A stretch of 64,000 nt of DNA from an uncultured Bacteroidia bacterium (GTDB lineage Bacteria > Bacteroidota > Bacteroidia > Bacteroidales > F082): positions 60,494-124,493 of the forward strand of contig CAJVWU010000001.1 of the NCBI GenBank assembly GCA_913009755.1, in the 5' to 3' direction. The notes below the pieces were generated by a model. The model was given only the letters and a program-made list of their open reading frames with translations, was not told the DNA's origin and did not search any database. Each line of letters begins with the position of its first letter. Position 1 is the stretch's first letter. Below, in pieces: positions 612-30,471 of the stretch. Made by a program: the position numbers and the translations under genes.

Positions 612-615
612 AACC

Positions 616-1227: not shown

Positions 1228-1228
1228 A

Positions 1229-2377: not shown

Positions 2378-2430
2378 AAAAACACGTGCCAATCTCAACC
2401 CATTTACTTAAATAACTTTTGAAAAAGATC

Positions 2431-5400
2431 ATGGAAAACGAAAAGGATAAAAGCAAAAAAGTAATCAGGACCTTTTGGCTCTCCAACTGGGCTTTAAAAA
2501 ACAAAACCACCGTTTACCTTTTGTTGGTGGTAATAATTGCTTTTGGGCTATACTCTTATATCTCCCGCCCGAAAGAGCTGTTTCCCGAGATTAACTTTCC
2601 AACCGTCATGGTACAAACGGTTTATCCCGGAAACCCGCCTGTTGACATTGAAAACCTCATCACACGGCCCATCGAAAAGGAGGTGGAATCCCTAAAGGGA
2701 ATTAAAAAAATGACTTCCCTGTCGAGCCAGGATGTTTCCGGCATATTCATTGAGTTTCAACCCAACGTGGACATTAATAAAGCTTTGCAGGATGTAAAGG
2801 ATGCTGTGGACAAGGCGAAAAACGATTTGCCCGACGACCTGCGCGAAGACCCTTCGGTTACGGATATTGACCTTTCCGAATTCCCGGTTGTCAACATAAA
2901 CCTCAGCGGTGATTTTAACGTGAACGAACTGAAAGAATATGCCGAAGAACTGAAAGATGAAATCGAAACAATTTATGAAGTCTCCAAAGTAAACATTACC
3001 GGCATAACCGACCGCGAAGTGCGCATCAACCTGAACCCTTTTAAAATGAGCGCCCTCAAGGTGAGCTATACCGATGTTGAAAATGCCGTAAAACGCGAAA
3101 ATGTTTCCATGTCGGGCGGCGACATTAAAATGGGAAAAATCCGGCGTACCATCCGCCTTGTGGGTGAGTTTAAACACCCTTCCGAAATAGATAACATCAT
3201 CGTAAAAAGTGAAAAAGGAAACATCGTTTACATGAGGGACATCGGATCGGTGGAATTCGGCTTTGCTGATCGCGACAGTTATGCACGTTTGAATAATCAA
3301 CCGGTTGTTTCGTTGCAGGTTATTAAAAAAAGCGGAGAAAACCTGCTGTCAACCATTGCCCAGGTCAACAAAATCCTGAAGAAGGCGCAGAACGACAATA
3401 CGTTACCCGAAAAACTGGTGGTTACCATCACCAACGATCAGTCGAAAACCGTTAAGTTGCAACTCAGCAACCTGGAAAACAGCATCATCATGGGGATGAT
3501 CTTTGTCATCATCATCTTGTTCCTTTTCCTGGGAACACGAAACTCACTGATTGTTGGGCTTGCCATCCCCATGTCCATGTTCCTTTCGTTCCTGGTCATG
3601 GGGCTTCTGGGCTACAACATCAACATGATTGTTTTATTTGCCCTGATCCTTGCCCTGGGGATGCTGGTTGATAATGCCATCGTGGTAACGGAAAACATGT
3701 TCAGGTATGTCCAGCGGGGATATTCCAGGATGGAGGCTGCCCGGCAGGCTACCGGTGAAGTGGCTGTCCCCATCATTTCATCAACGGCCACCACCCTGGC
3801 TGCCTTTGTGCCGTTGTTGTTCTGGGACAGCACAATCGGTAAGTTTATGAGCTATCTGCCCGAAACCCTGATTATTGTGCTTACCTCATCCCTGGTGGTC
3901 GCCCTGGTTATTGTCCCGGTTGTGTTTAACGATTTTTATAAAAAAGGAGCCAATGTGGTATTACCCAAACGCAGAAAACATTTGATTGCAATCATCATTT
4001 TGGTATTGCTCGCCATGATATTCTTTGCATTGAAGGTTAACTGGATGGGAACCCTTCTTCTGGCTTTTGCATTCATCGGCCTGCTGGATTTGCTTTTCCT
4101 CTCGCGGCTGGCCTTATGGTTTCAGAAAGTTGGCCTGGTGTGGCTCGAAAATACCTACCTGAAGTTTGTCACTTTTGCCCTGAACGGAAAAAACCCTTAC
4201 TTGTTAATTGCAGGCACTTTTGTGCTGATGATTGTAACCATGGTTTTCTATTTTAACTCAAACCCCAACATCGTTTTCTTTCCCCAGCCTGACCCCAAAC
4301 TGATCAATATTGTTACCGAGATGCCTATCAATACCGATATTGATGTAACCGATTCGGCCATGAAAGTAATTGAGAAAAAAGTGTTTGTTGTCCTTAAACC
4401 CGATATGAAGATCGTTAATTCGGTACTGACCACGGTTGGAAAAGGTGCCGTTGGCGAAAATGCGGGTTTTGGCGGAAGGACAGGTGGATCAAACAAAGGG
4501 CTGATCACCATTAATTTTGTGGAATATGAGGACCGGGGGGGGATAAGCACCCGTAAAATCCAACATGATTTGGAAAAAAACTTTGTGGGACAGTATCCGG
4601 GCATCATCATTTCCGTTGAAGGACAAAAACACGGGCCACCCACCGGAAAACCCATCAACCTGGAAATTCACGGTAAAGATTTCAGGACCTTATTGTTTTT
4701 GTCCGATACCATCCGCTCGGTGATCAATGCTGCCGGAATACCGGGCATTGAAGCCCTGAAAATTGACCTGGATGTGGGCAAGCCCGAATTGCTGGTGAAC
4801 ATAAACCGGGAAAAAGCCAGGCGTTACGGCCTTTCCACAAGCCAGATTGGTGACGCTATACGAACGGCATTGTTCGGAAAAGAGATATCCGATTTTAAAC
4901 AAGGGGAAGACGAATATAAGATCAGGATGAAACTGGCAGACAAATACCGGTATAACCTGGAAGACCTTATCAACCAAAGGATTACCTTCAGGAGTCAGGC
5001 CAGCGGTAAAATCATCCAGGTGCCCATTTCGGCAGTGGCCGATTTTACATACAGTTCAACCTACGGGGCCATTAAACGGATTGACCGTGACCGGGTGGTT
5101 ACCATTTATTCAAATGTACTGGAAGGATATAACGCCAACAACATTAATGTTGAACTGAAAAAGATAATGGGACAATTTAAACTTCCGGCAGGTGTTACCT
5201 ACAAATTTACAGGCGAACAGCAAGACCAGCAGGAATCCATGTCTTTTCTTGAAACCGCCCTGCTGATTGCCGTTTCGCTGATTGCCCTTATTTTGGTCAC
5301 CCAGTTCAATTCGTTTGTCAAACCGGCCATGATCATCTTTACGGTAGTGCTGAGCACCATTGGTGTATTTGGCGGGCTGGCCACCTTTAAAATGGATTTC

Positions 5401-5871
5401 ATTGTGGTTATGACCGGAATAGGCATTGTATCGCTGGCCGGTGTTGTGGTGAACAATGGCATTGTACTGATTGATTATATCGGCCTTTTGAAACAACGAA
5501 AGCGTAAAGAACTTGGATTGCCCGATGGCGCCAATCTGCCAAAAGACATTGCCAAAGAATGTATTGTCGAAGGCGGCAAAACCCGCTTGCGCCCCGTATT
5601 ATTAACGGCTATCACTACTATCCTGGGGCTGTTTCCGCTGGCTGTCGGCCTGAACATTGACTTTGTTTCGTTCCTGAACACCTTCAACCCGAAAATTTAT
5701 TTCGGCGGCGACAATGTGGCTTTCTGGGGCCCGCTGAGCTGGACGGTGATTTTCGGACTGAGCTTCGCCACTTTCCTCACCTTGATTCTTGTACCGTCAA
5801 TGTATCATGTTTTGGTACTGGGGCAGACCAAAATGAAGAATGTCTTCAATAAAAATAAAACGGGAAAATAG
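2431..5871 (+). CDS. RND efflux transporter permease (AcrB/HAE1-like)
   Basis: About 1146 aa with a two-fold repeat of TM bundles and large periplasmic loops. Motifs ALGMLVDNAIVVTEN and GIVSLAGVVVNNGIVLIDY are present. ATG 2431 is preferred over TTG 2419. Confidence 0.95.
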   Translation: MENEKDKSKKVIRTFWLSNWALKNKTTVYLLLVVIIAFGLYSYISRPKELFPEINFPTVMVQTVYPGNPPVDIENLITRPIEKEVESLKGIKKMTSLSSQDVSGIFIEFQPNVDINKALQDVKDAVDKAKNDLPDDLREDPSVTDIDLSEFPVVNINLSGDFNVNELKEYAEELKDEIETIYEVSKVNITGITDREVRINLNPFKMSALKVSYTDVENAVKRENVSMSGGDIKMGKIRRTIRLVGEFKHPSEIDNIIVKSEKGNIVYMRDIGSVEFGFADRDSYARLNNQPVVSLQVIKKSGENLLSTIAQVNKILKKAQNDNTLPEKLVVTITNDQSKTVKLQLSNLENSIIMGMIFVIIILFLFLGTRNSLIVGLAIPMSMFLSFLVMGLLGYNINMIVLFALILALGMLVDNAIVVTENMFRYVQRGYSRMEAARQATGEVAVPIISSTATTLAAFVPLLFWDSTIGKFMSYLPETLIIVLTSSLVVALVIVPVVFNDFYKKGANVVLPKRRKHLIAIIILVLLAMIFFALKVNWMGTLLLAFAFIGLLDLLFLSRLALWFQKVGLVWLENTYLKFVTFALNGKNPYLLIAGTFVLMIVTMVFYFNSNPNIVFFPQPDPKLINIVTEMPINTDIDVTDSAMKVIEKKVFVVLKPDMKIVNSVLTTVGKGAVGENAGFGGRTGGSNKGLITINFVEYEDRGGISTRKIQHDLEKNFVGQYPGIIISVEGQKHGPPTGKPINLEIHGKDFRTLLFLSDTIRSVINAAGIPGIEALKIDLDVGKPELLVNINREKARRYGLSTSQIGDAIRTALFGKEISDFKQGEDEYKIRMKLADKYRYNLEDLINQRITFRSQASGKIIQVPISAVADFTYSSTYGAIKRIDRDRVVTIYSNVLEGYNANNINVELKKIMGQFKLPAGVTYKFTGEQQDQQESMSFLETALLIAVSLIALILVTQFNSFVKPAMIIFTVVLSTIGVFGGLATFKMDFIVVMTGIGIVSLAGVVVNNGIVLIDYIGLLKQRKRKELGLPDGANLPKDIAKECIVEGGKTRLRPVLLTAITTILGLFPLAVGLNIDFVSFLNTFNPKIYFGGDNVAFWGPLSWTVIFGLSFATFLTLILVPSMYHVLVLGQTKMKNVFNKNKTGK

Positions 5872-5976
5872 TGCGTGTTCTTGTCATGGTTATATCTGGG
5901 AATTTTTTTCTGAATAGTTGCCAATTAACGGGTACTTTTCTGTCTGGTGATGATAAATTTGTTTTGGACACAAATT

Positions 5977-6717
5977 TTAAAGATTAATTATCTCAGCCTC
6001 ATAATTAAAGTAGTCGGAAAGAGATTTCCCGGAAAAATTTGTCAGGCGTTTTGTTTGTTGAATTGTATAATGACTATGATTTATAAATTTTTCAGTTTCC
6101 TTAATTAATTGATCTAAAAAGTCTTGCGCCGGAAGTACTTTATTTATCAGACCCATCTCATAAGCTTCGTTTGCAGTAAAAGAATCCTTCATTAAAAACT
6201 CCATGGCCATCGAATGGTGAAGGGAATTGGAAAGAAAAAAAGGTAACCCACCGCTTGGATGCAACCTAAATTTATTATGGGCCATGATGTATATTGTGCC
6301 TTCCCGGGAATAGATTAAGTCTGCAACAAAAGCTATACCGACAAAGGGCGTTACAACTGAACCTTGTGTGCCTTAAACTACAATTATATTAAGGTTTACC
6401 AGGGATTTAATAAAGCGGTTCAGAATATTGATCTCCCGAAACCTGACATTTTTTTGATGAAAATCTGGTGTTACTGATTGATCCCCTTCCTTTGATTGAG
6501 CCATGATTCGTTTTAAAAATTTATCATAATTGTCCTCATTTACACAATCGGGATCATGGTAGAAAACGAGCGCTTTAATTTCAGTACTACTTGAAATATT
6601 TTCAAGAAAATTCATCAATTCGCCGCTTAACTCAACATCAGAAATAAAGTCAAAAACATTTTTTTTTAATTCTGACGATCGAAATTGCATCCTTTTTGGA
6701 TATTTCGAAAAATTCAT
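5977..6717 (-). pseudogene. Enoyl-CoA hydratase/isomerase (crotonase) family gene interrupted by one in-frame TAA
   Basis: ORFs 6373-6717 and 5977-6285 are in the same frame (6717-6285=432). Codon-by-codon reading shows the only interruption is TAA at 6373-6375 (..NLNIIVV*GTQGSVVTPFVGIAFVADLIYS..). The joined product of about 246 aa has crotonase length and a C-terminal ANEAYEMGLINKVLP segment. Confidence 0.7.
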
Positions 6718-6775
6718 TGTCGGTTAGTTTGTTCATGATTTTAGTTTTTTATACTATAAATAAATGATTTCTTTT

Positions 6776-8137
6776 TTAAAAACTATACTTTACTTTTAGG
6801 AACCCCATATCATAACCAATAAGGTTGTTAAACAAGTTATCGCCTTTTCCGGTAAAAACATAAGCCCCCAATTGAATTTCGGCATTATCAACAGGTTTGT
6901 ATATGATAGAAGGTGCCCAGATAACAGCATAATTGTTGCTGATGTCATTCCAGTCGGAAACAACAAATCCACCGGTCAGGGGTTCAATTTTCAATTTATC
7001 TTCAAAGAAAGTTTTGTTATACCCAAGCATGAAATAATCATTCTGGTTGCCCCTGCCCCGTTCATTGATGAATCCGTGCAAGTATTGAAAATTTATATAG
7101 GAACCGTCACGAAAAGTATAATCCATCCCTAGAACAAATTTGAGGTACAACTCATTATCAACGATAAGACTGTCCATTTCCGGGAGCGGTTGTCCGGCAA
7201 TGTCATTGGTCATTACGACCTTTCTGTCCGGTAAAAAACCGGCTGCCTCGCCCCATATACCCACACCACCAATACTACCTGCGAAATCGGCACCGAAAAT
7301 ACTTTGCCTGTAAAAACCAGTTGTTGCACGAACATTAACCCCTCCTTCAAGATTGACCGGGGTAATACTATTGTGCAAAGGTGCAGCCAACCCGTCAAAG
7401 CCGTAAACATAGCTTATTGAAAAGTCGAAACCACCAAGAAAGGCTTTAAAGCGCGCGCCTGTTGTAGCACTTTGTGTGAGGCCAAACACAGGCATGACTA
7501 AACTGTCGGATGCGGAAACAATATATGCAGGAGGTGGAAGTTGCATTTCCGGTGTAAGGGCAACAGCAAAAACGCCAATGGGCATGGTAGCGGGTTGAAA
7601 TAAGGGAATGTAAACTGCCTGTAATGAAAAATCACTGGAAAAATAGTAAATGGCATTAATACCTATTGACCCGTTATGTCGTCCAAAATCCATTATATCT
7701 TCAAGGTCATACGGGTTTAAATTATCGGTGGGATTTAGCTTATCGGCAGTTCCCCACGCAATACGTTGTTTTCCAATCTTTACATCCAGATTTTTACTGA
7801 GCAAGCCGTAAAATTCCACATAGGCTTCCCTGACAGAAAGATTATAAGGATCAACAATATCCTTGTTATAAAGTTCGGAGGCAGAAGCGATTTTTGGTAA
7901 ACCAAGATTCCTTAGCCAAACCTCTGTATAAAATTTTGCCCGGTTTTTAAATTTGGCCTCAAGTTTTAAGTTCAAGCGATTTTCATTCCATGCCCACAAC
8001 CCTTGATCCTTTAACAAAAAACGTTCATCTGTTAAAATATTGCCACTGAATTTTACTTTATTTTCCTGTGCTTTTACAGAGCCGGAAATCATGATAATCA
8101 GGAATATGAATACATAAATTATTTTTATTCGTTTCAT
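6776..8137 (-). CDS. Outer-membrane beta-barrel protein (DUF1302-like/porin-like, assignment from memory)
   Basis: Signal peptide MKRIKIIYVFIFLIIMISGSVKAQ. Alternating aromatic/polar strands throughout. It has GKQRIAWGTADKLNPTDNLNPYD and a C-terminal F (..LKVKYSF). Confidence 0.55.
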   Translation of the reverse strand: MKRIKIIYVFIFLIIMISGSVKAQENKVKFSGNILTDERFLLKDQGLWAWNENRLNLKLEAKFKNRAKFYTEVWLRNLGLPKIASASELYNKDIVDPYNLSVREAYVEFYGLLSKNLDVKIGKQRIAWGTADKLNPTDNLNPYDLEDIMDFGRHNGSIGINAIYYFSSDFSLQAVYIPLFQPATMPIGVFAVALTPEMQLPPPAYIVSASDSLVMPVFGLTQSATTGARFKAFLGGFDFSISYVYGFDGLAAPLHNSITPVNLEGGVNVRATTGFYRQSIFGADFAGSIGGVGIWGEAAGFLPDRKVVMTNDIAGQPLPEMDSLIVDNELYLKFVLGMDYTFRDGSYINFQYLHGFINERGRGNQNDYFMLGYNKTFFEDKLKIEPLTGGFVVSDWNDISNNYAVIWAPSIIYKPVDNAEIQLGAYVFTGKGDNLFNNLIGYDMGFLKVKYSF

Positions 8138-8141
8138 AGGA

Positions 8142-8828
8142 TTATTTTATTAAGATTAATTTTTTTAGCGATTTAACTATTAAATCAAAATTCTTTAACA
8201 CTGTTAAACTAATTTGATGACCTTCTTTTACAAACTCTGTCATAGCCTTAGATGTTGAGGTTTTGTTAAACTTTGTCGGGTGTTTTAGTCCGCTTAACAT
8301 GACATATTTTACTCTTTTGCCTTGTGATTGGTAATAAAGATTAATAAGTGTTTCAACTCCAAAACGTGACTTTTTCATTTTATCAACGAGCCGTAATACA
8401 TCTTTTTTCAATAATGCCCGTTCGCCTGTAAATGATTTAAATGGGTTTATGCTATAGTTGATCAATGTTTCGGTTGCCTGGCCAAGAACCATATCAGCTT
8501 CTTTATGTATAACCGGCATGAGTAATTCAAACAAGTGATCATCAATTAAGTTTGATAAATCAGCATCAATAAAAACAATGATATCACCCGTCGCATTTTC
8601 AATACCGGTTGCCATGGCAAAGCCTTTTCCTTTGTTTTTCTTCAGGTGAATTGCATTTATATCAATCGTTTGTTGTAACCTTTCTATAATACTGCTTGTT
8701 TGATCAAACGAACCATCATTCACAACAATCATTTCGTTAATCAACGGGTATTCAATGACTGCGCGGATCACATTTTCCAAAGTTTTTTCCTCATTAAATA
8801 CACATATAACCGCACTTACCTTTTTCAT
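8142..8828 (-). CDS. Family 2 glycosyltransferase (polyprenol-phosphate/lipid GT-like)
   Basis: VSAVICVFNEEKTL, VVNDGSFDQT and IVFIDADL (DxD) motifs. The small size of about 228 aa is typical of Dpm1/GtrB-like GT2 enzymes. Confidence 0.85.
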   Translation of the reverse strand: MKKVSAVICVFNEEKTLENVIRAVIEYPLINEMIVVNDGSFDQTSSIIERLQQTIDINAIHLKKNKGKGFAMATGIENATGDIIVFIDADLSNLIDDHLFELLMPVIHKEADMVLGQATETLINYSINPFKSFTGERALLKKDVLRLVDKMKKSRFGVETLINLYYQSQGKRVKYVMLSGLKHPTKFNKTSTSKAMTEFVKEGHQISLTVLKNFDLIVKSLKKLILIK

Positions 8829-9703
8829 TGAATTTCTTTGTTTTTATCAAACTTTTCTAAAAGTTCACGTGTAACAATCCTGCCTGTTTCAACAAGCTCT
8901 TTGGCCTTGTGGAAATCAAAAGTGCCGCAGGTTTGCCCGGATATATTAATGAGCAGATCGGGCGGGTTCATTTCAAGTGTCAGTTTTGATATTTGTGACA
9001 ACATCAGGCTTGTTGAAGTAACCATTAACTGAAAATAACCAATACTTTCCTTATTATTTACGGGAATAAGTTGTGCAAGTTTTTCCCGGAATATTTTTAA
9101 CCGGCCATTGGTTAAATGATCTTTATTTTCAATTTTTGTGCTTCTATGGACAGGGATTTGTGCATTCACATTGACAGCCACAAGCAAATCACCTTCTCTC
9201 CTCTTTACATGGTTCACCGGTACCGGGTTTAAAACACCACCATCAACAAAGTGCAGGCCTTCAATTTTGGTAGGTGTAATTACCAAGGGGATAGAAATAG
9301 ATGCCCTGATGGCTTCCCATAAACTCCCGGTTGAAAACACTTTTTCTTTTTTATTGCGGATATCAGTTGCTATCGCTGTAAAAGGTATGGGCAAGTCTTC
9401 AATTTTCTGATCGGGAATAAATGTCTTGATCTTTTTCAATACTTTGTCTGCTTTTATTATGCCACTTGTACTCAAAGTAAAGTCAACCAAATTAAATACA
9501 TCCATCCTGTCCAAAGCACACAACCATTCTTCATATTCGTCCAGTTTTCCTGAAGCATAAACCCCGCCAACCAATGCGCCCATTGACGAACCTGAAATGG
9601 AAGTAATCTCGTATCCATGACTAATAAGTTCACGGATCACCCCAATGTGCGCTGCTCCACGGGCTCCGCCACTTCCTAAAACAAGAGCTACTTTCTGTTT
9701 CAT
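8825..9703 (-). CDS. Patatin-like phospholipase
   Basis: Oxyanion box GSGGARGAAHIGV, nucleophile elbow GSSMG and catalytic Asp in VDGGVLNPVP. It overlaps the downstream GT2 start by 4 nt. Confidence 0.9.
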   Translation of the reverse strand: MKQKVALVLGSGGARGAAHIGVIRELISHGYEITSISGSSMGALVGGVYASGKLDEYEEWLCALDRMDVFNLVDFTLSTSGIIKADKVLKKIKTFIPDQKIEDLPIPFTAIATDIRNKKEKVFSTGSLWEAIRASISIPLVITPTKIEGLHFVDGGVLNPVPVNHVKRREGDLLVAVNVNAQIPVHRSTKIENKDHLTNGRLKIFREKLAQLIPVNNKESIGYFQLMVTSTSLMLSQISKLTLEMNPPDLLINISGQTCGTFDFHKAKELVETGRIVTRELLEKFDKNKEIQ

Positions 9704-9711
9704 TTTTCAAC

Positions 9712-10449
9712 TTACTGCATTAACTTTCTAACCGTAAAATCATCATCTGAAAGTCCCTGATCATAAACAACATCACTGACCACCATTTTTGTAACATGAT
9801 CCTTCTTCAAATCTTTCATTATTATTTCTTTTGAGGTCCAGTATTTTCCCACTTTTTCGAATTGATAAGTTGCTTCTTTGACGTTTTTTCCCACCTTATC
9901 AAAATATTCGGTAGTTACAGGATAAAAATTTTGTTTATTGATTTTCATCACCAGTTTTGAATAATCAGATTTCAATTCCGGCTTAGGAACTAACTTTAAC
10001 GTATAAGTTTCGTCATCCTGGCCAATCAGATCAGGATCATATTTTGAAGTGTACGGCTTGGCTTCCATATCATCATAAGAAAAATCTGTTCCTGCAAATT
10101 TCTGGTTCTTTACCGACGAGGCAATCCTCCTTTCTTTTCCAAAAGCAGGCATGTATAAATACATCACATCTTTGGGCAGCGATAAAAAAGCTATGCCTGC
10201 GTAAGATGCGGGACTTGTAAAACGAAACAACCGCATATTATTTCCTTTTTCCAAAACATCTGCGTTACGCGTACTTTCTTCTCCGTTCTTATCAATCAGA
10301 GTTATTGTGACCTTGTATTGTTGGTCTTTTGCCGAATACAAAACTTCATCGAGTTTTTGAAGGATTTCATTTGCATCTTGTGCTTTTGCACTAAATCCAA
10401 CTAAAAGGAATAATGCACTTACTAATACTGATAATTTTACTGTTCTCAT
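9712..10449 (-). CDS. LolA-like outer-membrane lipoprotein-sorting/carrier protein
   Basis: Signal peptide. RLFRFTSPASYAGIAFLSLP, MYLYMPAFGKERRIASSVKNQKFAGTDFSYDDME and LSDDDFTVRKL are typical of the LolA_like family that accompanies MMPL transporters. Confidence 0.75.
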   Translation of the reverse strand: MRTVKLSVLVSALFLLVGFSAKAQDANEILQKLDEVLYSAKDQQYKVTITLIDKNGEESTRNADVLEKGNNMRLFRFTSPASYAGIAFLSLPKDVMYLYMPAFGKERRIASSVKNQKFAGTDFSYDDMEAKPYTSKYDPDLIGQDDETYTLKLVPKPELKSDYSKLVMKINKQNFYPVTTEYFDKVGKNVKEATYQFEKVGKYWTSKEIIMKDLKKDHVTKMVVSDVVYDQGLSDDDFTVRKLMQ

Positions 10450-10466
10450 TTTACTTAAATTTTATG

Positions 10467-11297
10467 TTAATGATTTAATTTATATACTTGTTCTTTTACT
10501 TTTTGTGCCCACGCTCTATAGGTTAATGTATTATCAAAAGATTTATATGAAATTGGTTTTCCAATGGTGACTTTTATTGTTTTATTTCGTTTTTTATACA
10601 TTTCACGAGGCAAGAGTATCAACTCAAGAGTCGTTTTTATTCCGAATATTTGCCTGAATAAATAGATGCCATAAAACAGAATCGAATTTCTACCACTAAC
10701 CTTTATTGGTACAATGTCTCTTTTGTTTTCAATAGATTTTTTAACAAAGCTCTTTTTCCACTCTCCATCTTGAATTTTTCTTTTTTTAATTCTTGATACG
10801 ATACCGGCAGGGAAATTTGTAATAGGCAAATCGGACTCATAAACTTCTTTTAATTTTGCAATATGTTGTCTTGAATTTTTTTCAAAAACATTTACATAAA
10901 AAGTAATTGGATTTAAATTTTTAACATATTTCAAATAATCATTACTTATAATTCTTAAGTCACCATATTTTTTTCCTACTATTGAAAGTATAATTAAACC
11001 ATCAATCAAACCAAATGGATGATTGGAGACAAAAATGCAGTTTCCATTTATTGGTAAATTCGATTCTCCTGTAATATCAACTTTAACATTGAGGTACTCT
11101 AATACTTTAGGTGGAAAATCAACACCGACATAATCTGAATTATCGCAAAAAAGCTTATTAAGACTTTTTTGCCTTATAATTATGGCAATAGCTTTTATAA
11201 AGATATCCGGTAAGCTCTTCAAAAATTTTGAATCACTATTTTTAATGATAGGTGCAATATCTATAGTTTTCACACTATTTGCAATTTTGCTATTCAT
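10467..11297 (-). CDS. Lysophospholipid acyltransferase (LPLAT) family protein
   Basis: NHPFGLIDG box (a variant of the acyltransferase H..D box) and FPAGIVSR. Similar in size and motifs to OlsA/GlsA-type O-acyltransferases (from memory). Confidence 0.65.
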   Translation of the reverse strand: MNSKIANSVKTIDIAPIIKNSDSKFLKSLPDIFIKAIAIIIRQKSLNKLFCDNSDYVGVDFPPKVLEYLNVKVDITGESNLPINGNCIFVSNHPFGLIDGLIILSIVGKKYGDLRIISNDYLKYVKNLNPITFYVNVFEKNSRQHIAKLKEVYESDLPITNFPAGIVSRIKKRKIQDGEWKKSFVKKSIENKRDIVPIKVSGRNSILFYGIYLFRQIFGIKTTLELILLPREMYKKRNKTIKVTIGKPISYKSFDNTLTYRAWAQKVKEQVYKLNH

Positions 11298-11402
11298 AAC
11301 ATCAGAATTTATTTCTCTGTAATTAATTCATATATAATTATTTGCTCTTTTAAAAAATACTTTGTTTTTCTTTATTAAAAGTTAAATTATTGCCTAAACA
11401 TT

Positions 11403-13655
11403 TTATGGTTTTTCTTTTGCTTTGTTTGCAAGAATTAAGATTACGGGCAATAAGGTTAAAGCCCCGAGTCCTGAACCAACCATGCTAAGGGCAACTAACA
11501 AACCAAAATTTTGTATAGGAACGATATGTGAAAAAGTTAATACAAGAAAGCCCAATGACACTGAAATAATATTGATAATAATAGCCTTGCCGCTAATCAT
11601 AATACTGTCTTTTACTGATTCATCCATATTTTTAACTTCATCAAACTTTTTTGAAACATGAGTGATAATATGGATTGAGTAATCAATACCCATACCGAGG
11701 GCAACACTCGCCACGAGCACTGTTGCAATATCGAGTGCAATACCGCTAACTCCCATAAAGCCAAACAAAATAATAATGGTAGCTATAATGGGTATTGCCG
11801 CATATATTCCTTTTGAAAAAGAATGTAATATTAAAGCGACAATTAAAACCACTAATAAAATAGCTATTGTCAGGCTGCTGAATTGACTGCGGATTAAAGA
11901 ATTATTTAACTTTACATATACCGAAGGCATACCTGTTAAAGTTATTTGGCAGTCATTGGAAGAATTCTCTTTTATGAATTTATTCATATAGGTTACAAAA
12001 TCTTTCATGTCTTTACTGTCGGCAGAAGCAAACTTCGATTGTATTATTCCCTCATCAAGTTTTTTGGTAACCAGTTGGTCCATTACATCCTGACCGTCCA
12101 GCAAAAACCACAGGTTTTCAATTTTGGCTCTTTCATCCGGTATCTTCTTTCCTTCACCCATCACATCGTTCATCTCTTCTATTAAATCCGCCACCGATTG
12201 TGTGGTAGAAATGTCCGGGTATTTTTTCATATAATTTTCTGTTTTAACCATTTTTTTTAAAACATCCGGGCTCTGCATATCTCCCTTAAATACAACGAAA
12301 ACAGGTAATGAACCGCCAAATTCTTTCTGCATGATATCTTCCGTAACCCTGGTGGGATCATTTTTATGAAAATAGTCTGCCATATTAATGCTGGTTTTAA
12401 TATTAAATATCCCCCATATACTAATTGCCATCAAAACAATCCAGGCTACGGTAATATATTTTGGATGCTTTACAATAAGATTGGAAAAAGGGGTAAGTAA
12501 CATTTTACCCATAAAAGTATCTTCTGAACTTTTATGTTTCTTTAAAGCTTTTGTGGATTTATACATCGCAAATGCAGCGGTAACAGCGGGAGGAAATGTA
12601 ACGGAAATCAATAATGCAAATAATACCCCGAGAGAAGTAAAAATTCCAAAATCCCGGATCATGGTAAGGTATGCACCGAAAATAAATGACGCAAAACCGA
12701 ATACGGTAGTAATACCGGATAGAAATACAGGTATAATAATATAGGCTAAAGAAATTATTAATGCTTTCCGCCGGTCTTTTTCTTTACATTCGTTTATCCT
12801 GTTGATAACATGTATGGTATAAGCGCTGCCAACTGCAAGTAATATGACAGGCATATTGATTGAAACCAAATTTAATTGATAACCCAATAATTGCATAAGC
12901 CCCAAAACCCATACTATAGAAATACTTGCTGTTAAAAGAGGTAAAATAACACCACGGGCAGACCTGAAACTTATTAAAAGAACTAACATTATAACAACAA
13001 ATGCAATAGGCAATAAATTCCTCAAATCAACCAACATTAAGTTCGACACATCATTCATCATCATTGGTAAACCGCCAAAACTTATTTTTTCGGGAAGATT
13101 TAGTCTTGTGATTTTTTCTTTTACTTCTTTTGCCACTACTTGTTTATCAGCATTGTCAAGCAGGGTAAACATAACAAGGGTTGCCTTCCCATCAGCAGAA
13201 ACGATGGAACCTTTATACATATCTTTTGAAAAAACATAGTTCTTTAAACTATCTAATTTTTGTTGTGTATCGGGTAAGTCATATTCATCAACGAGTTTGC
13301 CTATTTCAATGCCGCCATCCACATTTTTTATATCAATAATATCAGTCAGGCTCGTAACTGTTGAGATTCCATCAATATATTTAATAGTATCCGTTATTTG
13401 TTTAATGTCTTCTAATACTTTGGTGGTAAAAATATTATCGGCTTGAATAATAACCATACCCATGGTATTCCCACCATATTTATTACCGATATTTGTATAT
13501 AATACCGCGGTTGAATCATCGTCAGGCAAGGAATTGATAACATCTGAATCAATTGTTAAATTTGGAAGCCGGTAACCAAAAAATACGGTTAATCCAACTA
13601 CCACCACTATTATAAACCATTTTAATTTTACTATTAGTTCTGCTAATTTGTTCAT
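11403..13655 (-). CDS. MMPL/RND-superfamily lipid exporter (12 TM, two periplasmic domains)
   Basis: 750 aa. Two repeats, each with one N-terminal TM, a soluble domain of about 170-200 aa and a 5-TM bundle. It has GMGIDYSIHI and GSAYTIHV motifs. Confidence 0.85.
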   Translation of the reverse strand: MNKLAELIVKLKWFIIVVVVGLTVFFGYRLPNLTIDSDVINSLPDDDSTAVLYTNIGNKYGGNTMGMVIIQADNIFTTKVLEDIKQITDTIKYIDGISTVTSLTDIIDIKNVDGGIEIGKLVDEYDLPDTQQKLDSLKNYVFSKDMYKGSIVSADGKATLVMFTLLDNADKQVVAKEVKEKITRLNLPEKISFGGLPMMMNDVSNLMLVDLRNLLPIAFVVIMLVLLISFRSARGVILPLLTASISIVWVLGLMQLLGYQLNLVSINMPVILLAVGSAYTIHVINRINECKEKDRRKALIISLAYIIIPVFLSGITTVFGFASFIFGAYLTMIRDFGIFTSLGVLFALLISVTFPPAVTAAFAMYKSTKALKKHKSSEDTFMGKMLLTPFSNLIVKHPKYITVAWIVLMAISIWGIFNIKTSINMADYFHKNDPTRVTEDIMQKEFGGSLPVFVVFKGDMQSPDVLKKMVKTENYMKKYPDISTTQSVADLIEEMNDVMGEGKKIPDERAKIENLWFLLDGQDVMDQLVTKKLDEGIIQSKFASADSKDMKDFVTYMNKFIKENSSNDCQITLTGMPSVYVKLNNSLIRSQFSSLTIAILLVVLIVALILHSFSKGIYAAIPIIATIIILFGFMGVSGIALDIATVLVASVALGMGIDYSIHIITHVSKKFDEVKNMDESVKDSIMISGKAIIINIISVSLGFLVLTFSHIVPIQNFGLLVALSMVGSGLGALTLLPVILILANKAKEKP

Positions 13656-13719
13656 ACTTAAATTTTATTTATCAATTTATACTTTTATTGTTTTATAGTC
13701 AGTTATTTTCAAATTTTTT

Positions 13720-14274
13720 TTAGCTATATCTCTTATCTAAAGTAAAATTCTCTGGGTACTTCCCATTTACATCTTTATACATTTCACATATTTTTGATAT
13801 TGTTTTTTTCATATCACTTGTTTCTCTAATAACCCCTTTAATTCCAATTTCTTTTTTTTTATAATCAATATAACCAACTATTATAGGTACATCTGCCTTA
13901 TTTGCCATATAGTAAAATCCTTTTTTCCAATGATCAGTTTTTGCAAGTTGTCCTTCAGGAGAAAGGACAATATGTAATCTTTCACTTTCTTTAAATAGTG
14001 CAACAATTTCATTTATATAATCTTTATTTCGTGAAACAGGAATGGAACCATATAACCTGAAAAAATACTTTAATGGGAATTTAAAGAATTCCTTTTTCGA
14101 TAAGAATTTATAAACTATATCAATTTGCATAAGTAATAGTTTCCCATAAAACGCATCCCAATAGCTTGTGTGCGGAGCAAATATGATAACAGATTTCTTA
14201 AAATTTGGGAAAAAACCCATTACTTTCCATCCTAAAACAGATGTAAGGATATATTTAGAAATCGTTTCCATCAC
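13720..14274 (-). CDS. PlsC-type 1-acyl-glycerol-3-phosphate/lysolipid acyltransferase
   Basis: H(X)4D box in FAPHTSYWD and PEG box in LSPEGQL. 184 aa. Confidence 0.75.
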   Translation of the reverse strand: MMETISKYILTSVLGWKVMGFFPNFKKSVIIFAPHTSYWDAFYGKLLLMQIDIVYKFLSKKEFFKFPLKYFFRLYGSIPVSRNKDYINEIVALFKESERLHIVLSPEGQLAKTDHWKKGFYYMANKADVPIIVGYIDYKKKEIGIKGVIRETSDMKKTISKICEMYKDVNGKYPENFTLDKRYS

Positions 14275-14322
14275 ATTATTACTTGAACTAATATCGTTTT
14301 ACAGCCTTTTAATGAAAATGAA

Positions 14323-14965
14323 TTATCTTTTTAAAACATAAAACATATACTCAAATTCTCGTGTCACAAACTTATTGTATGTCAGTGTCCCCTCTGTTGC
14401 AGCAAAATTTCTACCTAAATATTGTAGAAGCTTTGGCATCAATTTCTTTATTAATTCTAGTCTGTCCTGTGAGGTTAATTTTAAAGCTTCAACTACATTA
14501 GAGGTAATTATTTCCTCTTTAATTAATTGTAAATTTGATCTTTTCAATTGTGTGGTTAGTTTTTCAAGCTCAAGATTACTCCTAAAAGTTTAGATTTTGT
14601 GCATCTGCCTGCGAAAATTTAATTCTTTCATTTGCATAATATTTTTTACAAAATTCAATGGCTTTATTACTCAAATCAACCCCGGTTACTAAACCTGGTT
14701 CCAAATAGCGATTAATGTATGATAAACCACCACCACGTCCGCAACCTACTTCTAAAATATCTTTCCCTTTTATATCTATTCCAGTTGCAACCAAATGGTA
14801 AAGTTGTATTGAGTATCTGTTTTTTTCATCATTTTCATCAAGTTTGATCTTATGTTTATCATTCGAGTAACCATAGTTCATGAAAATTACTTGTGCATTT
14901 CTATCAATTGTACTCAGATACCAGTACCAAATTCTGAAAAGGAAATTCTTTAGTTTATCTACCAT
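14323..14965 (-). pseudogene. Class I SAM methyltransferase (phthiotriol/PDIM-methyltransferase-like) with internal deletion and frame change
   Basis: N-terminal part 14582-14965 carries motif I (ILEVGCGRGGG) and ends ..FSQADAQNLNF*. The C-terminal part (frame open from 14589 down to 14323) is in another frame (14965-14547=418). Only about 35 nt separate the two parts, where about 45 codons (post-I to motif III) are expected. Confidence 0.7.
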
Positions 14966-14982
14966 AGTTTATAAAAACTAAT

Positions 14983-15534
14983 TTATTTAGTCCCTTCAAA
15001 AATAAATACGGGTGGTACATTTAGCAATGTGGCATTTAGGCTTGATTTTGAGAATCTTTCTTTGATCAGATGATAAATTAACAAGGAATACTGATAAGTA
15101 ATAAATTTCCCATTTTCTTTGAGTAAGGAATAAGACCTGAAAATGATCCTTCTCCTTTTTTTTCTGTCGAGAAAAGTAAACGGTATCGTTGAGATAATAT
15201 AATCTACTCTTTCAATTTTATATCGGTTTTTTAAAATCATTTTTGCTTCTTCAGCATCCGCATTAATTAAGATTAACCGTTTATCATTGATTTTAATCAA
15301 TTCATTAATAAAACTTTCATTGGTTTCAAATGCAAAAAGAACAGTGTCTTCACTCATTAGGTTGAGAAGTTGCTTTGTGATTACACCTTTACCCGGTCCA
15401 TATTCAACAAATACTTTTGCTTTTTCAAAGTCAATCTTATTTATAAAATCTTTTACAACATATTTTGAGGTGGATACTATCGCTCCAACATTTTTATCTT
15501 TTATCAGTTCTTTTATCAATATCATTTCTTTCAT
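14983..15534 (-). CDS. Small class I SAM methyltransferase, phospholipid N-methyltransferase (PmtA/COG3963)-like
   Basis: VFVEYGPGKGVITKQLL (motif I) and YIISTIPF. Length of 183 aa fits the family. Confidence 0.65.
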   Translation of the reverse strand: MKEMILIKELIKDKNVGAIVSTSKYVVKDFINKIDFEKAKVFVEYGPGKGVITKQLLNLMSEDTVLFAFETNESFINELIKINDKRLILINADAEEAKMILKNRYKIERVDYIISTIPFTFLDRKKRRRIIFRSYSLLKENGKFITYQYSLLIYHLIKERFSKSSLNATLLNVPPVFIFEGTK

Positions 15535-15583
15535 AATAATTTTGTACTTAAAGTGTTTTATAGTCGGTAATACGTAAAAAAAA

Positions 15584-16168
15584 TTATTTGCCTAAACCTT
15601 TTATTAAAATTCTTAATAAATCATCAAAATGCGGACTTAGGTCATCATATTTACCCTGTAAAAAAAATGGTATTTCAAGTCCTTTTAACACCATAATGAA
15701 CACATCAAGCAAAACCTCCATATTACCATTTTGAATCCTAAAAATGTCTTCGTCAATGCCCTGAAGTATAATACTTTTAAGTTGTTCTTTTTCCCAATTA
15801 TCCAAATCGTTTCTTAAACTGTCAATAAAATCAAAATGCTCAAAAAAGTCTGCTTTCAGCGTTTCATGATAATTGGCAGCAGAATCCAAAACTTCCATTC
15901 GTTTTATCAGGTACCTTTTAATTTTTTCATCTGCTTTCAATGTATTGTCATTGACAATGACAGATAATTGAGTTTTTAAATTATTAATTTCTTTTGCTAC
16001 AACTTCTGTGAACAGTTCCTCTTTACCGGCAAAGTGATAATACAACGAACCTTTGGCTTTTCTTGCTATTTTAGCAATCTCATCCATTGATGTTTTATAA
16101 AATCCGTAACGGCCAAATAGCCTGGAAGCTACAGTTATAATTTTATTTTTTGTATCATCAACTGCCAT
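15584..16168 (-). CDS. TetR/AcrR-family transcriptional regulator (first gene of the island)
   Basis: HTH segment GFYKTSMDEIAKIARKAKGSLYYHFAGKEELF. Confidence 0.85.
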   Translation of the reverse strand: MAVDDTKNKIITVASRLFGRYGFYKTSMDEIAKIARKAKGSLYYHFAGKEELFTEVVAKEINNLKTQLSVIVNDNTLKADEKIKRYLIKRMEVLDSAANYHETLKADFFEHFDFIDSLRNDLDNWEKEQLKSIILQGIDEDIFRIQNGNMEVLLDVFIMVLKGLEIPFFLQGKYDDLSPHFDDLLRILIKGLGK

Positions 16169-16222
16169 CTTATTTATTTAATCTATTTGACTATATCTGT
16201 TTAAGAGTACAAAGAAATGATA

Positions 16223-16272
16223 TTTTTTTAAAATGTCAAAATTTATTAACGGATTTTAACATTTTAAAAAAA
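16223..16272. promoter_or_regulatory. 50-bp AT-rich palindrome, candidate TetR operator
   Basis: Arms 16223-16242 (tttttttaaaatgtcaaaat) and 16253-16272 (attttaacattttaaaaaaa) are reverse complements at 19/20 positions, with a 10-nt spacer. It lies 55 nt upstream of the TetR start at 16168. Confidence 0.4.
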
Positions 16273-16301
16273 CAGATTTCTGATTTTCTGAGAGTAATGC
16301 T

Positions 16302-16628
16302 TCATTGTCCCTTTATTTTATAAAGAAAATGAGAGGCGTCACCAAACTTTTCGAAGGGAATATTAACGTACAATCCTTCGGAGGTGGAAAAAACGTCATC
16401 ACCGCTATATATCTTTCCTTTTGTCACCACCTTTCGGCCGTCAATTGATTCCACCCAGGCTTCAACTGTTACAACTGAGTTTACGGGAAGCATTTGAATG
16501 TATTCTACAATAATTTTTGCGGCAACCACCGTTTGCCCGGCTATCCAGGCAGCAAACCCCATGGCTTCATCCAGCACGGCTGCCATGCTTCCCCCGTGTG
16601 CGTGTCCGGGAGGACCCTGCGAAAACTG
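16302..16628 (-). pseudogene. PaaI/hotdog-fold thioesterase, 5'-truncated
   Basis: The frame reads *QFSQGPPGHAHGGSMAAVLDEAMGFAAW.. from 16628 downward. The catalytic-region motif GPPGH.HGG..A..LDE is present. The expected N-terminal 40-60 aa and any start upstream of the motif are missing (stop at 16629-16631). Confidence 0.7.
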
Positions 16629-17899
16629 TCATAATAAAAACCGTTGGGATGAAATTCATTTCGACCACAGCCAGACCGGCTATGAGCTTCAGGGCAAACA
16701 CAAGGAACAAAGTTGTCGTGCCTGTCATTTTAAGCCCCTTGCCAACGGGGGCACCTTGCAACAGTTCAAGGGTTTGACAGCAAGTTGCACCCAATGCCAC
16801 AAGGATGAACACCACAACCAATTTGCAACAAACGGCAAAAGCTGGAAAATTGACAGGAAAAATATTTCGTTCGATCACAACCTCACACAATTCCCGTTGC
16901 GTGGCGTGCACCAGGATGTAAACTGTGTGACCTGCCACCCCAGTCTGGTATTTTCGGAGGCTGAACCCGAATGTATGTCGTGCCACACCGACATTCACGA
17001 ACAAACCGTCGGCTTTGAATGCGGACGCTGCCATACGACTTCATCATGGATTGTTAGCGACATTATTGATATTCACCGGCATAGCCGTTTCCCTTTGCTC
17101 GGGGCACACGTTACAGCCGACTGTTACGATTGTCACAAAACAGCTTCTCTGTTGCGCTTCGACCCTCTTGGTGTTGAATGTATTGATTGCCACCGCGACA
17201 AGTATCTGGCCGCAACCAGCCCCAACCATGTGGAAGGCGGGCTACTCCACCGATTGTTCCGAATGTCATCAGATGAATTCATTTACCTGGACAGGGCCTA
17301 ATTTTACGCACAGCTTCTTCCCACTGACCGGGGGTCATGCCATCAGCGATTGTAGCCGTTGCCATACCGACCCCAACGACTATTCAAACATTTCACCTGA
17401 TTGTTTTTCATGCCATAGTAAAGATTACAACTCCACCACACAACCCAATCACCAGCAGGCCGGGCTTTCAACCAATTGTGCAAGCTGCCACAAGGGCGAT
17501 TACGACAACACGCCCAACACTTGCGTGGGCTGCCACCAAAGTGATTACGACCAAACCACCAATCCACCTCATGCGTCCGCACAGTTTTCAACTGACTGTT
17601 CGCTTTGCCATACGGAAACCGTATGGATCCCATCTACTTTTGACCACGACGGCCAGTATTTTCCAATTTACAGTGGCAATCATAATGGGGAATGGGAACT
17701 TTGTTCCGACTGTCATACAACGCCAGGTAACTACTCGGCCTTTAGTTGTATTGACTGCCACGATCACAATAAAGCCAACATGGATGAGGAGCACAGTGAT
17801 GTCAGCGATTATGTTTACAACAGTATTGCCTGTCTTGATTGCCATCCCAACGGCAGCGAAGATTTCAACAAAACACAGACAAAGTTTAAAATAAGATAA
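16618..17899 (+). pseudogene. Multiheme cytochrome c (about 17 CXXCH), 5'-truncated and frameshifted
   Basis: CXXCH motifs: CENCH, CRACH, CTQCH, CVTCH, CMSCH, CGRCH, CYDCH, CIDCH | CSECH, CSRCH, CFSCH, CASCH, CVGCH, CSLCH, CSDCH, CIDCH, CLDCH. There is no signal peptide. The frame upstream of 16618 is the antisense of the thioesterase. Reading passes from frame 1 to frame 2 at about 17236 (extra G in gaa-g-gcg-ggc-tac). Confidence 0.75.
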
Positions 17900-30383: not shown

Positions 30384-30387
30384 CCTG

Positions 30388-30471
30388 TACCCGAGGCCGG
30401 GGTCGAACCGGCACTCCCTGGAAGGAACTGGTTTTTGAGACCAGCGCGTCTACCAATTCCGCCACTCGGGC
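30388..30471 (-). tRNA. tRNA-Leu (anticodon CAA), class II with long variable arm, CCA not encoded
   Basis: Hand-folded: acceptor GCCCGAG / CTCGGGT. D arm GCG-GAATTGGTAGA-CGC. Anticodon arm CTGGT-CTCAAAA-ACCAG. 15-nt variable arm. T arm GCCGG-TTCGACC-CCGGC. Discriminator A. 84 nt. Confidence 0.9.

Follow-up and report, generated by a model that had tools for sequence, protein, structure and literature searches.

The locus described here raises the question of what a run of 11 genes, in which lipid-modifying enzymes are interspersed with the parts of an export system, does for its host, and whether such an arrangement stands alone. The block lies on the minus strand at 5977-16168 of a 64,000-nucleotide stretch of contig CAJVWU010000001.1 from an uncultured Bacteroidia bacterium (positions 60,494 to 124,493 of the contig; this stretch is called the window below). 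A preliminary description had seen in it an island for the tailoring and export of a lipid, without a synthase core. We find that the block is one member of a widely conserved modular operon family in Bacteroidota and other bacteria of the Fibrobacterota-Chlorobiota-Bacteroidota (FCB) group, and that the copy in the window is horizontally acquired, reduced and partly decayed. The best-supported reading, which we place slightly on the probable side, is that the operon serves the tailoring of an endogenous lipid and its export to the outer membrane under the control of a TetR-family regulator.

Layout of the block

According to the listing of open reading frames (ORFs) and their translation, the 11 co-directional genes form an uninterrupted run in the order TetR, MT1, MT2 (pseudogene), PlsC, MMPL, GlsA, LolA, patatin, GT2, barrel and ECH (pseudogene), where MT1 and MT2 are methyltransferases, GT2 is a family 2 glycosyltransferase and ECH is an atypical crotonase. 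From TetR down to MT2 the gaps measure 49, 17 and 34 nt, the 34-nt gap being located inside the broken MT2 gene. Below MT2 they measure 48, 64, 105, 17, 8, -4, 4, 58 and 87 nt, the 87-nt gap being located inside the broken ECH gene. The largest intergenic gap is 105 nt, and the patatin and GT2 genes share 4 nt at 8825-8828. The strand, the gap sizes and the overlap had been given correctly in the preliminary description, and its proposal of one TetR-headed unit combining lipid-modifying enzymes with an MMPL/LolA-like/barrel export set is supported. All of its domain calls were recovered in profile searches with Pfam and NCBIfam models.

A modular operon family

The MMPL protein of the window has hundreds of close homologues in public data. 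By scanning with an alignment of this protein, taking one genome per species, 80 related loci with 54-82% identity were obtained. They belong to Bacteroidales, Marinilabiliales, Lentimicrobiaceae, Flavobacteriales, Chlorobiota and Marinimicrobia; the cultured Marinilabilia salmonicolor is among them, with strain MSL42 (locus L047) having the order TetR-MMPL-LolA-GNAT-SDR-PlsC-patatin-GT2-barrel. The loci were searched with all window proteins by tblastn and all their ORFs were clustered. The core of the family consists of four genes, which are always co-directional and code for the TetR regulator, a resistance-nodulation-division (RND) transporter of the HAE3/MMPL type, a LolA_like (PF17131) carrier and a DUF1302-like barrel. 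TetR was detected in 68 of the 80 loci and is the first gene in these, the LolA-like gene in 72 and the barrel gene in 53. Conserved co-localisation of the MMPL and LolA-like genes, which the preliminary description had proposed as a check, is hence found in dozens of genomes.

The enzyme modules were counted in the 45 complete loci, i.e. those spanning TetR to barrel. A LolA-like gene is present in 44 of these, patatin in 27, GT2 in 21, PlsC in 20 and the GlsA-like gene in 8, followed by a short-chain dehydrogenase/reductase (SDR; 8 loci), a 373-aa tandem-GNAT protein (7), MT2 (7) and a FabH-like ketosynthase (KS; 4). Rarer accessory genes code for an acyl carrier protein (ACP), undecaprenyl-diphosphate synthase (UppS), LysE, START-like, radical SAM, CDP-alcohol phosphatidyltransferase and alpha-oxoamine synthase proteins. 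In its fullest form, seen in loci L058, L052 and L020, the operon reads TetR-MMPL-LolA-KS-MT2-GNAT-SDR-PlsC-patatin-GlsA-GT2-GT2-barrel. The closest relative on the upstream side, L082 (81% MMPL identity), has MT2-GNAT-SDR-PlsC-PlsC, with MT2-GNAT-SDR situated at the exact position of the lone broken MT2 of the window.

No homologue of KS, ACP, SDR or the tandem-GNAT protein was found anywhere in the 64-kb window, so the absence of synthase genes in cis that had been reported before is correct. Since the fuller relatives carry a synthase-like module with FabH-like KS, ACP, SDR and tandem-GNAT genes, this absence reflects a reduced or decayed state and is not a defining trait of the system. Likewise, with 80 related loci at hand the block is not a singular island. 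Full-text literature searches returned no published description of this Bacteroidota cluster, and the family is apparently undescribed.

Several loci carry additional genes between carrier and KS. Undecaprenyl-diphosphate-synthase-like genes are located there in L019 (4088-5136), L048 (4343-5101) and L066 (13080-13823), radical SAM/SPASM genes in L055 (12278-13696) and L059 (13033-14481), and in L019 an ACP gene as well. These insertions are further evidence for a highly variable enzyme payload. A serine-palmitoyltransferase-like alpha-oxoamine synthase adjoins the cluster in L055 (17240-19687), L066 (19020-21414) and L072 (1171-2364), accompanied in L055 and L066 by a CDP-alcohol phosphatidyltransferase and an SDR. 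These neighbours hint at a link to sphingolipid- or capnine-type lipids.

A predicted TetR operator

The first gene of the operon codes for the TetR-family regulator (15584-16168, minus strand; TetR_N 55 bits). An operator-like palindrome, TTTGTACTCTTAAACAGATATAGTCAAA, is located on the minus strand at 16186-16213, i.e. 18-45 nt upstream of the TetR ATG, and is a probable TetR site. It occurs only once in the window. Across the family the palindrome has the form TTTGTAC-N13-15-GTACAAA (or TTTGAC...GTCAAA) and lies 26-47 nt 5' of the TetR start. The strict pattern was found in 33 of 65 loci, compared to 0.03 expected from shuffled sequences; allowing two mismatches, 47 of 65 loci matched compared to 4.2 expected. 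In 37 of these 47 loci TAnn stands before the left arm, and the resulting TAnnTTTG matches the -7 promoter consensus of Bacteroidota.

The type of half-site splits perfectly by TetR subtype. In all 10 loci with GAC arms the TetR is 35-42% identical to the TetR of the window, and in each of the 22 remaining related loci, where GTAC is present in one arm or both, this identity is 51-70%. Given this covariation of half-site and regulator, the palindrome is very likely the operator of TetR, overlapping the promoter, and the operon is predicted to be repressed at its own promoter. Scans for sigma-70 promoters and for terminators were uninformative (50 sites, 47.5 expected). Between a thioesterase remnant (see below) and the operator we found an AT-rich inverted repeat (16223-16272, without strand assignment) with 20-nt arms that are 95% complementary and a 10-nt spacer. 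This repeat may form a terminator-like hairpin or serve as another site of regulation.

Pump, carrier and barrel

The transporter is a 750-aa inner-membrane protein of the HAE3/MMPL type (11403-13655, minus strand; MMPL 164.9 bits). Its top NCBIfam match is the HAE3 model TIGR00921 with 294.9 bits, below the cutoff of 351.9. When the family profile was compared with solved structures, MmpL5/MmpL4, NCR1/NPC1, MmpL3, HpnN and Patched were retrieved. The structure model is of moderate confidence, with a predicted local distance difference test score (pLDDT) of 66 and a predicted template modelling score (pTM) of 0.63. It superposes best on MmpL5/4 (TM-score 0.66-0.69), MmpL3, NPC1-type proteins and HpnN, with an overall range of 0.62-0.69, and no AcrB-type pump was among the top 50 fold matches. 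The nearest solved relatives of the pump, MmpL5/4/3, NPC1 and HpnN, are carriers of lipids or other hydrophobic compounds, and AcrB is not one of them.

The periplasmic carrier (9712-10449, minus strand) belongs to the LolA_like/TP_0789-like family PF17131 (168 bits) and has a signal peptide of the signal peptidase I (SPI) type and no lipobox cysteine. Its relatives in the PDB are 3BK5, 3BUU, 4Z48 and 9TP6, the last one being LolA3 of P. gingivalis (E = 4.7e-12). The NCBIfam LolA3 model NF053579 matches the N-terminal 56 residues only, with 32.9 bits against a cutoff of 83.

The last core gene codes for a DUF1302-like outer-membrane beta-barrel (6776-8137, minus strand) with an SPI signal peptide. 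The protein scores 23.0 bits against DUF1302, just short of the cutoff of 23.2; the homologue in L058 reaches 28.6 bits, and homologues are annotated as hypothetical or DUF1302, mostly PF06980. A sequence search of the PDB gave no matches. The AlphaFold2 model of the barrel is all-beta (pLDDT 64.7), and Foldseek relates it to 16-18-strand porins and AlgE (TM-score 0.44-0.51). Residues ~118-156 are the best-conserved stretch of the family, KIGxQRIxWGTADKLNPTDNLNPYDLED..DFGRH, mostly invariant in 37 sequences, and at the same time the least confident part of the model (pLDDT 28-47). Possible roles of this stretch are those of a plug, of a latch or of a loop that binds a partner.

Enzymes and their possible chemistry

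The GlsA-family (Acyltransf_2) O-acyltransferase (10467-11297, minus strand; Acyltransf_2 143.6 bits) passes the NCBIfam GlsA model NF053697 with 274.9 bits at a cutoff of 260 and matches the N-terminal O-acyltransferase domain of OlsF with 178 bits. Its homologues in L058 and L084 score 278 and 297 bits against the GlsA model. Enzymes of the GlsA family link a fatty acid by an ester bond to the 3-hydroxyacyl group of lyso-aminolipids. MT1 (14983-15534, minus strand) is a small S-adenosylmethionine-dependent methyltransferase of the PmtA/OlsG (lipid N-methyltransferase) type. Its top NCBIfam matches are OlsG with 60.7 bits and PmtA with 48.8 bits, neither of which reaches the cutoff (350 and 250, respectively). 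It is a rare accessory, with homologues detected by tblastn in about 6 related loci, of which 4 share its protein cluster; in the gene maps that show MT1 it adjoins PlsC. The GlsA assignment and the nearness of MT1 to OlsG and PmtA together hint at an amino-lipid-type chemistry, an aspect which had not been considered in the preliminary description.

The small PlsC-type acyltransferase of the lysophospholipid acyltransferase (LPLAT) superfamily (13720-14274, minus strand; Acyltransferase 41.4 bits) has the HX4D motif, as HTSYWD, and PEG. In related loci it usually adjoins the patatin-like lipase/acyl hydrolase, which in the window is located at 8825-9703 (minus strand; Patatin 113 bits), is of the RssA type (182.5 bits against the RssA model, cutoff 272) and contains GSSMG and DGG. 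The PlsC-patatin pair suggests deacylation followed by reacylation. While HTSYWD, PEG, GSSMG and the NHPFGLIDG of the GlsA-like protein had been read correctly before, the patatin motif given as GGGARG is actually GSGGARG. The GT2 protein (8142-8828, minus strand; Glycos_transf_2 93 bits) is short (228 aa) and received no equivalog assignment; its presence suggests glycosylation or the synthesis of a polyprenyl-phosphate sugar.

GlsA-like relatives with 50-53% identity also occur outside MMPL clusters. In three such loci, belonging to two organisms (L084 7001-8623; L085 7001-8626 and L086 5419-7044), the neighbouring gene is an MT2 homologue (52% identical), without GlsB beside them. GlsA-like protein and MT2 therefore form a mobile two-gene module by themselves, and the pairing suggests that this module makes an O-methylated acyloxyacyl lipid.

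For the fuller clusters a sequence of reactions can be proposed in which KS, ACP and SDR would make the 3-hydroxyacyl group, the tandem-GNAT protein would N-acylate an amine or amino acid, the GlsA-like enzyme would add the ester-linked acyl chain and MT2, of the Mtf2/phthiotriol type, would O-methylate the product. Regarding the tandem-GNAT protein as a GlsB-type enzyme, NCBIfam gave only a very weak RimI match and Pfam a general GNAT match together with two very weak N-myristoyltransferase matches; there were no sequence matches in the PDB.

Foreign composition of the block and decayed genes

The G+C content of the block is 0.332 compared to 0.426 for the remainder of the window. Other 10.2-kb windows within the 64 kb have a mean of 0.423 (standard deviation 0.012, minimum 0.403), placing the block about 7.6 standard deviations lower. 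At third codon positions the G+C content (GC3) is 0.20-0.37 in block genes and 0.52-0.56 in flanking genes, a gap of about 0.25, and in tetranucleotide usage the block is at a distance of 0.0287 from the rest of the window, three- to fourfold the 0.0067-0.0103 of other chunks. The low G+C content noted earlier is thus borne out, and the block has the strongly atypical composition of a horizontally acquired island. In the family the clusters have a G+C content of about 0.33-0.37 in hosts with flanks ranging from 0.32 to 0.50, and they lie below their flanks in 33 of 41 loci. This constant low G+C content and the near-equidistance of the MMPL homologues across three phyla fit repeated horizontal transfer. 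With respect to hallmarks of mobility we found no tRNA within 14 kb, no flanking direct repeats, no Rfam family and no integrase at the insertion; the neighbours of the block are AcrB-like and cytochrome genes. Exact look-ups of the MMPL and of the flanking cytochrome, made in search of an empty site, gave only contigs with the identical arrangement.

That MT2 and the crotonase gene are broken, as had been noticed from the sequence, was confirmed by alignment to full-length relatives. The MT2 pseudogene (14323-14965, minus strand; Methyltransf_25/11) has lost 41 codons internally and carries a frameshift at 14585/14586; full-length relatives score 240 bits against the phthiotriol/phthiocerol dimycocerosate (PDIM) methyltransferase model. 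The ECH pseudogene (5977-6717, minus strand), with ECH_1 matching the C-terminal half only, is a continuous frame of 246 codons interrupted by a single TAA at 6373-6375. An intact homologue of 254 aa is found 3' of the barrel in L032 only. Recoding at this stop was considered and rejected, the codon being TAA and aligned to an ordinary serine of the L032 protein at a non-catalytic position.

A third decayed gene, not contained in the preliminary description, is situated upstream of TetR. It is an N-terminally truncated hotdog thioesterase of the 4HBT family (16302-16622, minus strand; homology at 16338-16622 in a 94-aa ORF), 66% identical to residues 68-163 of a 180-aa protein of L061, with a flank-like G+C content of 0.44. 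In other loci the full 4HBT thioesterase is an accessory gene 3' of the barrel. The sequence of the block was found again in independent marine metagenome assemblies. In a second such assembly the same broken products of MT2 (127 aa and a C-terminal 74 aa) and of ECH are called, and a third contig, which stops before ECH, has the same truncated 127-aa MT2 product. Since the broken products recur in an independent assembly, an assembly error is unlikely.

Comparison with known systems

Among known systems, those of the AmeABCD-type HAE3 kind and the orphan LolA3 proteins come closest. In proteobacteria a set of DUF1302, DUF1329, BNR and COG1033 genes shows cofitness in several species and has been proposed to export a constituent of the cell envelope (10.1101/072470). 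The version of Castellaniella defragrans is AmeABCD, which contributes to monoterpene tolerance (PMC6394551). The block shares with this type, including the cofitness clusters of Shewanella and Pseudomonas, an HAE3-like RND pump, a DUF1302-like outer-membrane protein and a protein of the LolA superfamily, as well as the proposed movement of hydrophobic cargo across the envelope (PMC6394551; 10.1101/072470). It differs in that its carrier is a PF17131 protein of about 245 aa instead of a DUF1329 protein of about 450 aa, in that its barrel has about 455 aa and is a borderline DUF1302 member compared to about 600 aa, and in that it is headed by TetR with a putative operator and has lipid-biosynthetic enzymes embedded. 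A BNR/COG4447 gene was found neither in the block nor in the gene maps of the 80 loci.

LolA3 of P. gingivalis (PGN0947, structure 9TP6) binds LolB very weakly, is devoid of the diagnostic LolA/LolB residues and likely has a separate function (PMC13103446), and deletion of lolA3 in F. johnsoniae (Fjoh_0605) gives no phenotype (PMC11885536). As in the carrier of the window, to which it is related in sequence, a signal peptide and a hydrophobic groove are features of LolA3, itself a paralogue of LolA. The window carrier differs in scoring far below the NCBI LolA3 model. As LolA3 is not paired with LolB and its deletion has no lipoprotein-related phenotype, a non-lipoprotein cargo is plausible.

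With the GlsB/GlsA and OlsF/OlsG pathways the block has in common the O-acyltransferase that passes the GlsA model, the match to the OlsF domain and the similarity of MT1 to OlsG and PmtA. It differs from them in having no adjoining N-acyltransferase of the GlsB/OlsB type and in the sub-cutoff scores of MT1. The amino-lipid literature examined, including a review, names no export system for these lipids. The mycobacterial MmpL systems (MmpL3, MmpL7 with LppX, MmpL4/5) and the hopanoid transporter HpnN resemble the block in transporter architecture, and the former also in the PDIM-type methyltransferase family of MT2 and in the concept of a pump combined with a LolA-fold lipid carrier. The identity is, however, 14-17% and the window scores are far below every equivalog cutoff; moreover, the block resides in a diderm with an outer-membrane barrel as partner, and its MT2 is a pseudogene.

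Aryl-polyene (APE) and PDIM systems had been drawn on for comparison in the preliminary description; for the transport trio, the nearest described relative is instead the DUF1302/DUF1329/HAE3 (AmeABCD) type. APE/flexirubin clusters (ApeB, D, J, K, L, M and N; LolA2/LolB2 of F. johnsoniae) follow the same logic of tailoring enzymes with a LolA-like protein and an MMPL-type pump, by which a specialised lipid is brought into the outer membrane (PMC8253772; PMC11885536). In contrast to these, the block proteins are not orthologous, the outer-membrane partner is a barrel and not a LolB-like DUF3261 protein, and none of the relatives has APE-type polyketide genes, FabH-like KS, SDR and occasionally ACP being found instead. 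Membership was rejected by BLASTP and phmmer comparison with the Ape proteins of E. coli CFT073 (L083), which gave superfamily-level similarity only. This direct comparison agrees with the earlier statement that the block does not make an aryl polyene in cis and argues against its placement inside an already characterised cluster of this type.

What the operon may transport

Taking pump, carrier, barrel and enzymes together, the operon could work as follows. TetR would keep the operon repressed as long as no lipid-like ligand relieves it. Cytoplasmic or inner-membrane enzymes would then build or tailor an amphiphilic lipid, the intact ones of the window copy being the patatin-like deacylase and the PlsC-type reacylase, the GlsA-family O-acyltransferase, the OlsG/PmtA-like N-methyltransferase and GT2. 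The proton-driven MMPL-type pump would pull the product out of the inner membrane, the soluble LolA-like protein would shield its acyl chains across the periplasm, and the barrel would receive it or insert it in the outer membrane. The cargo is possibly an acyloxyacyl aminolipid. Because the window has no KS/ACP/SDR/tandem-GNAT module, the backbone of the substrate must come from elsewhere in the genome, for which a housekeeping N-acyl amino acid pathway (GlsB/OlsF-type) or the glycerolipid pathway would be candidates. The earlier idea that an existing lipid is remodelled and delivered to the outer membrane is retained here in its outline as the reading that fits best, and stays an interpretation.

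A number of points weigh against export of a tailored lipid. The substrate and the direction of transport are deduced only from homology and gene context, and the models of MMPL protein and barrel are of moderate confidence (pLDDT 65-66). The GlsA-like protein is barely over its cutoff, a GlsB-type N-acyltransferase was not found in the block next to it, and its close relatives pair with a methyltransferase instead of glsB; MT1 lies so far under the OlsG and PmtA cutoffs that its resemblance is one at the family level. The three accessory pseudogenes mean that the enzyme set of the window may be non-functional or decaying. In 14 of the 45 complete loci the operon is a bare core without any enzymes, which shows that the transporter needs no cluster-encoded enzymes and could act on an exogenous substrate. 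Furthermore, RND systems under TetR control are classically efflux pumps. The only HAE3 system with a DUF1302 and a LolA-superfamily protein that has been studied, AmeABCD, gives monoterpene tolerance and dye efflux (PMC6394551).

These last observations are at the same time the basis of the main rival, to which we assign a minor but appreciable probability. The core would be a TetR-regulated efflux or tolerance system, AmeABCD-like, for exogenous hydrophobic compounds such as fatty acids, terpenes, hydrocarbons or detergents, and the enzymes would repair or adjust membrane lipids under stress without making the transported substrate. A repressor with a promoter-overlapping operator is typical of inducible pumps, and the best NCBIfam matches of the window TetR include the efflux repressors MtrR and AcrR, beside FadR, FasR and PsrA. 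What speaks for a lipid product is that in more than 30 genomes the transporter genes have genes of anabolic lipid enzymes (among them ACP, KS, N- and O-acyltransferases) inserted between them within one operon, as in biosynthetic clusters that have an exporter of their own, such as those for APE, hopanoids and PDIM, and that the nearest structural relatives of the pump carry endogenous lipids or siderophores. Rather improbable, in our judgement, is that the block is nothing but a horizontally acquired, decaying remnant which lost its synthase module and has no defined product any more. The deletion and frameshift in MT2, the nonsense codon in ECH, the truncated 4HBT gene, the absence of the GNAT and SDR genes of the closest relative L082 and the strongly foreign composition would all be explained. 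Nevertheless, the four core genes as well as MT1, PlsC, the GlsA-like gene, patatin and GT2 are full length compared to their homologues, the predicted operator is intact, independent marine metagenome assemblies contain the same sequence, and many relatives work with equally small enzyme sets.

Transport in the opposite direction was also considered, in that barrel and carrier would import exogenous lipids or esters for degradation by patatin, thioesterase and crotonase. To grow on fatty esters such as Tween 20, P. putida requires DUF1302, DUF1329, BNR and RND genes (10.1101/2020.07.04.188060), and patatin, 4HBT and ECH have hydrolytic or beta-oxidation-type folds. Such scavenging or catabolism of lipids is unlikely, as RND/MMPL pumps use the proton gradient for export, ECH and 4HBT are seldom found as accessories and are broken in the window, and the accessory genes are mostly biosynthetic (acyltransferases, methyltransferases, glycosyltransferases, KS and ACP). 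Finally, the block could represent the half of an aryl-polyene/flexirubin cluster that serves anchoring and export, with the synthase genes located elsewhere in the genome, given that methyltransferase, LPLAT, GT2, thioesterase, LolA-like and RND proteins have matching categories in ApeB/D/J/K/L/M (PMC8253772). This explanation is largely refuted and very improbable. The MMPL protein matches ApeM in short segments of 24-25% identity (E ~1e-3 in a 16-protein database), the similarity of the LolA-like carrier to ApeL is not significant, and GT2 is 26% identical to ApeJ. Neither DUF3261 (ApeN) nor COG4648 (ApeG) has an equivalent among the block proteins by the Ape comparison and, for DUF3261, by Pfam; the DUF1302-like barrel takes their place. 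The synthase genes of the relatives code for FabH-like KS, SDR and GNAT and not for KS, chain-length factor and dehydratase of the APE type.

Surroundings of the block

An AcrAB-like efflux operon on the plus strand at 595-5871 converges on the block. Its genes code for another TetR regulator (595-1227), a membrane-fusion protein (1211-2377) and a pump of the AcrB-type HAE1 group (2419-5871), and its composition is host-like (G+C 0.455, GC3 0.56). Homologous operons adjoin the cluster in four loci, namely the window, L007, L022 and L038. A functional tie between cluster and efflux operon was rejected, four of about 50 loci being close to chance by a rough estimate and the G+C content being unlike that of the block. 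Directly past the other end of the block, multihaem cytochrome c genes are located at 16498-19289 (plus strand); the first ORF codes for 267 aa with 8 CXXCH motifs, and at its annotated start it overlaps with the thioesterase remnant.

Further away, two paralogous AAA_14/DUF4143 ATPase genes (32912-34075 and 48171-49295, both minus strand) lie in patches of low G+C content (0.37 and 0.317) and may likewise be of foreign origin. The gene at 28720-30072 (plus strand), in a patch with a G+C content of 0.349, codes for a protein with leucine-rich repeats and a C-terminal sorting domain for type IX secretion, which confirms a Bacteroidota host. A tRNA-Leu gene follows just downstream at 30387-30471.

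Significance of the operon family

The value of these findings is in the family and less in the reduced, partly broken copy of the window. Its members are found in many lineages, marine, sediment and gut-related ones, and cultured strains are among them. With regulator, operator, pump, carrier and barrel the family provides a candidate system that is compact, conserved and genetically separable, and in which the interchangeable enzyme modules could reveal the cargo. If efflux should prove to be the function, the family would represent a new three-part RND pump architecture for this phylum. It also bears on the roles of DUF1302 barrels, PF17131 carriers and LolA3 paralogues, and on how lipids other than lipopolysaccharide (LPS) and lipoproteins reach the outer membrane, which is poorly understood especially in Bacteroidota. 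As a more tentative proposal, which goes beyond what we would call probable, HAE3 pump, LolA3-like PF17131 carrier and DUF1302-like barrel may constitute a dedicated route from the inner to the outer membrane for non-LPS lipids in Bacteroidota and their relatives, with the modules specifying undescribed N-acyl lipids, for example amino lipids that are O-acylated, methylated at O or N, or glycosylated. If this is true, a role would be found for orphan proteins of the LolA3 type and for DUF1302 barrels, and a first pathway of export for amino lipids.

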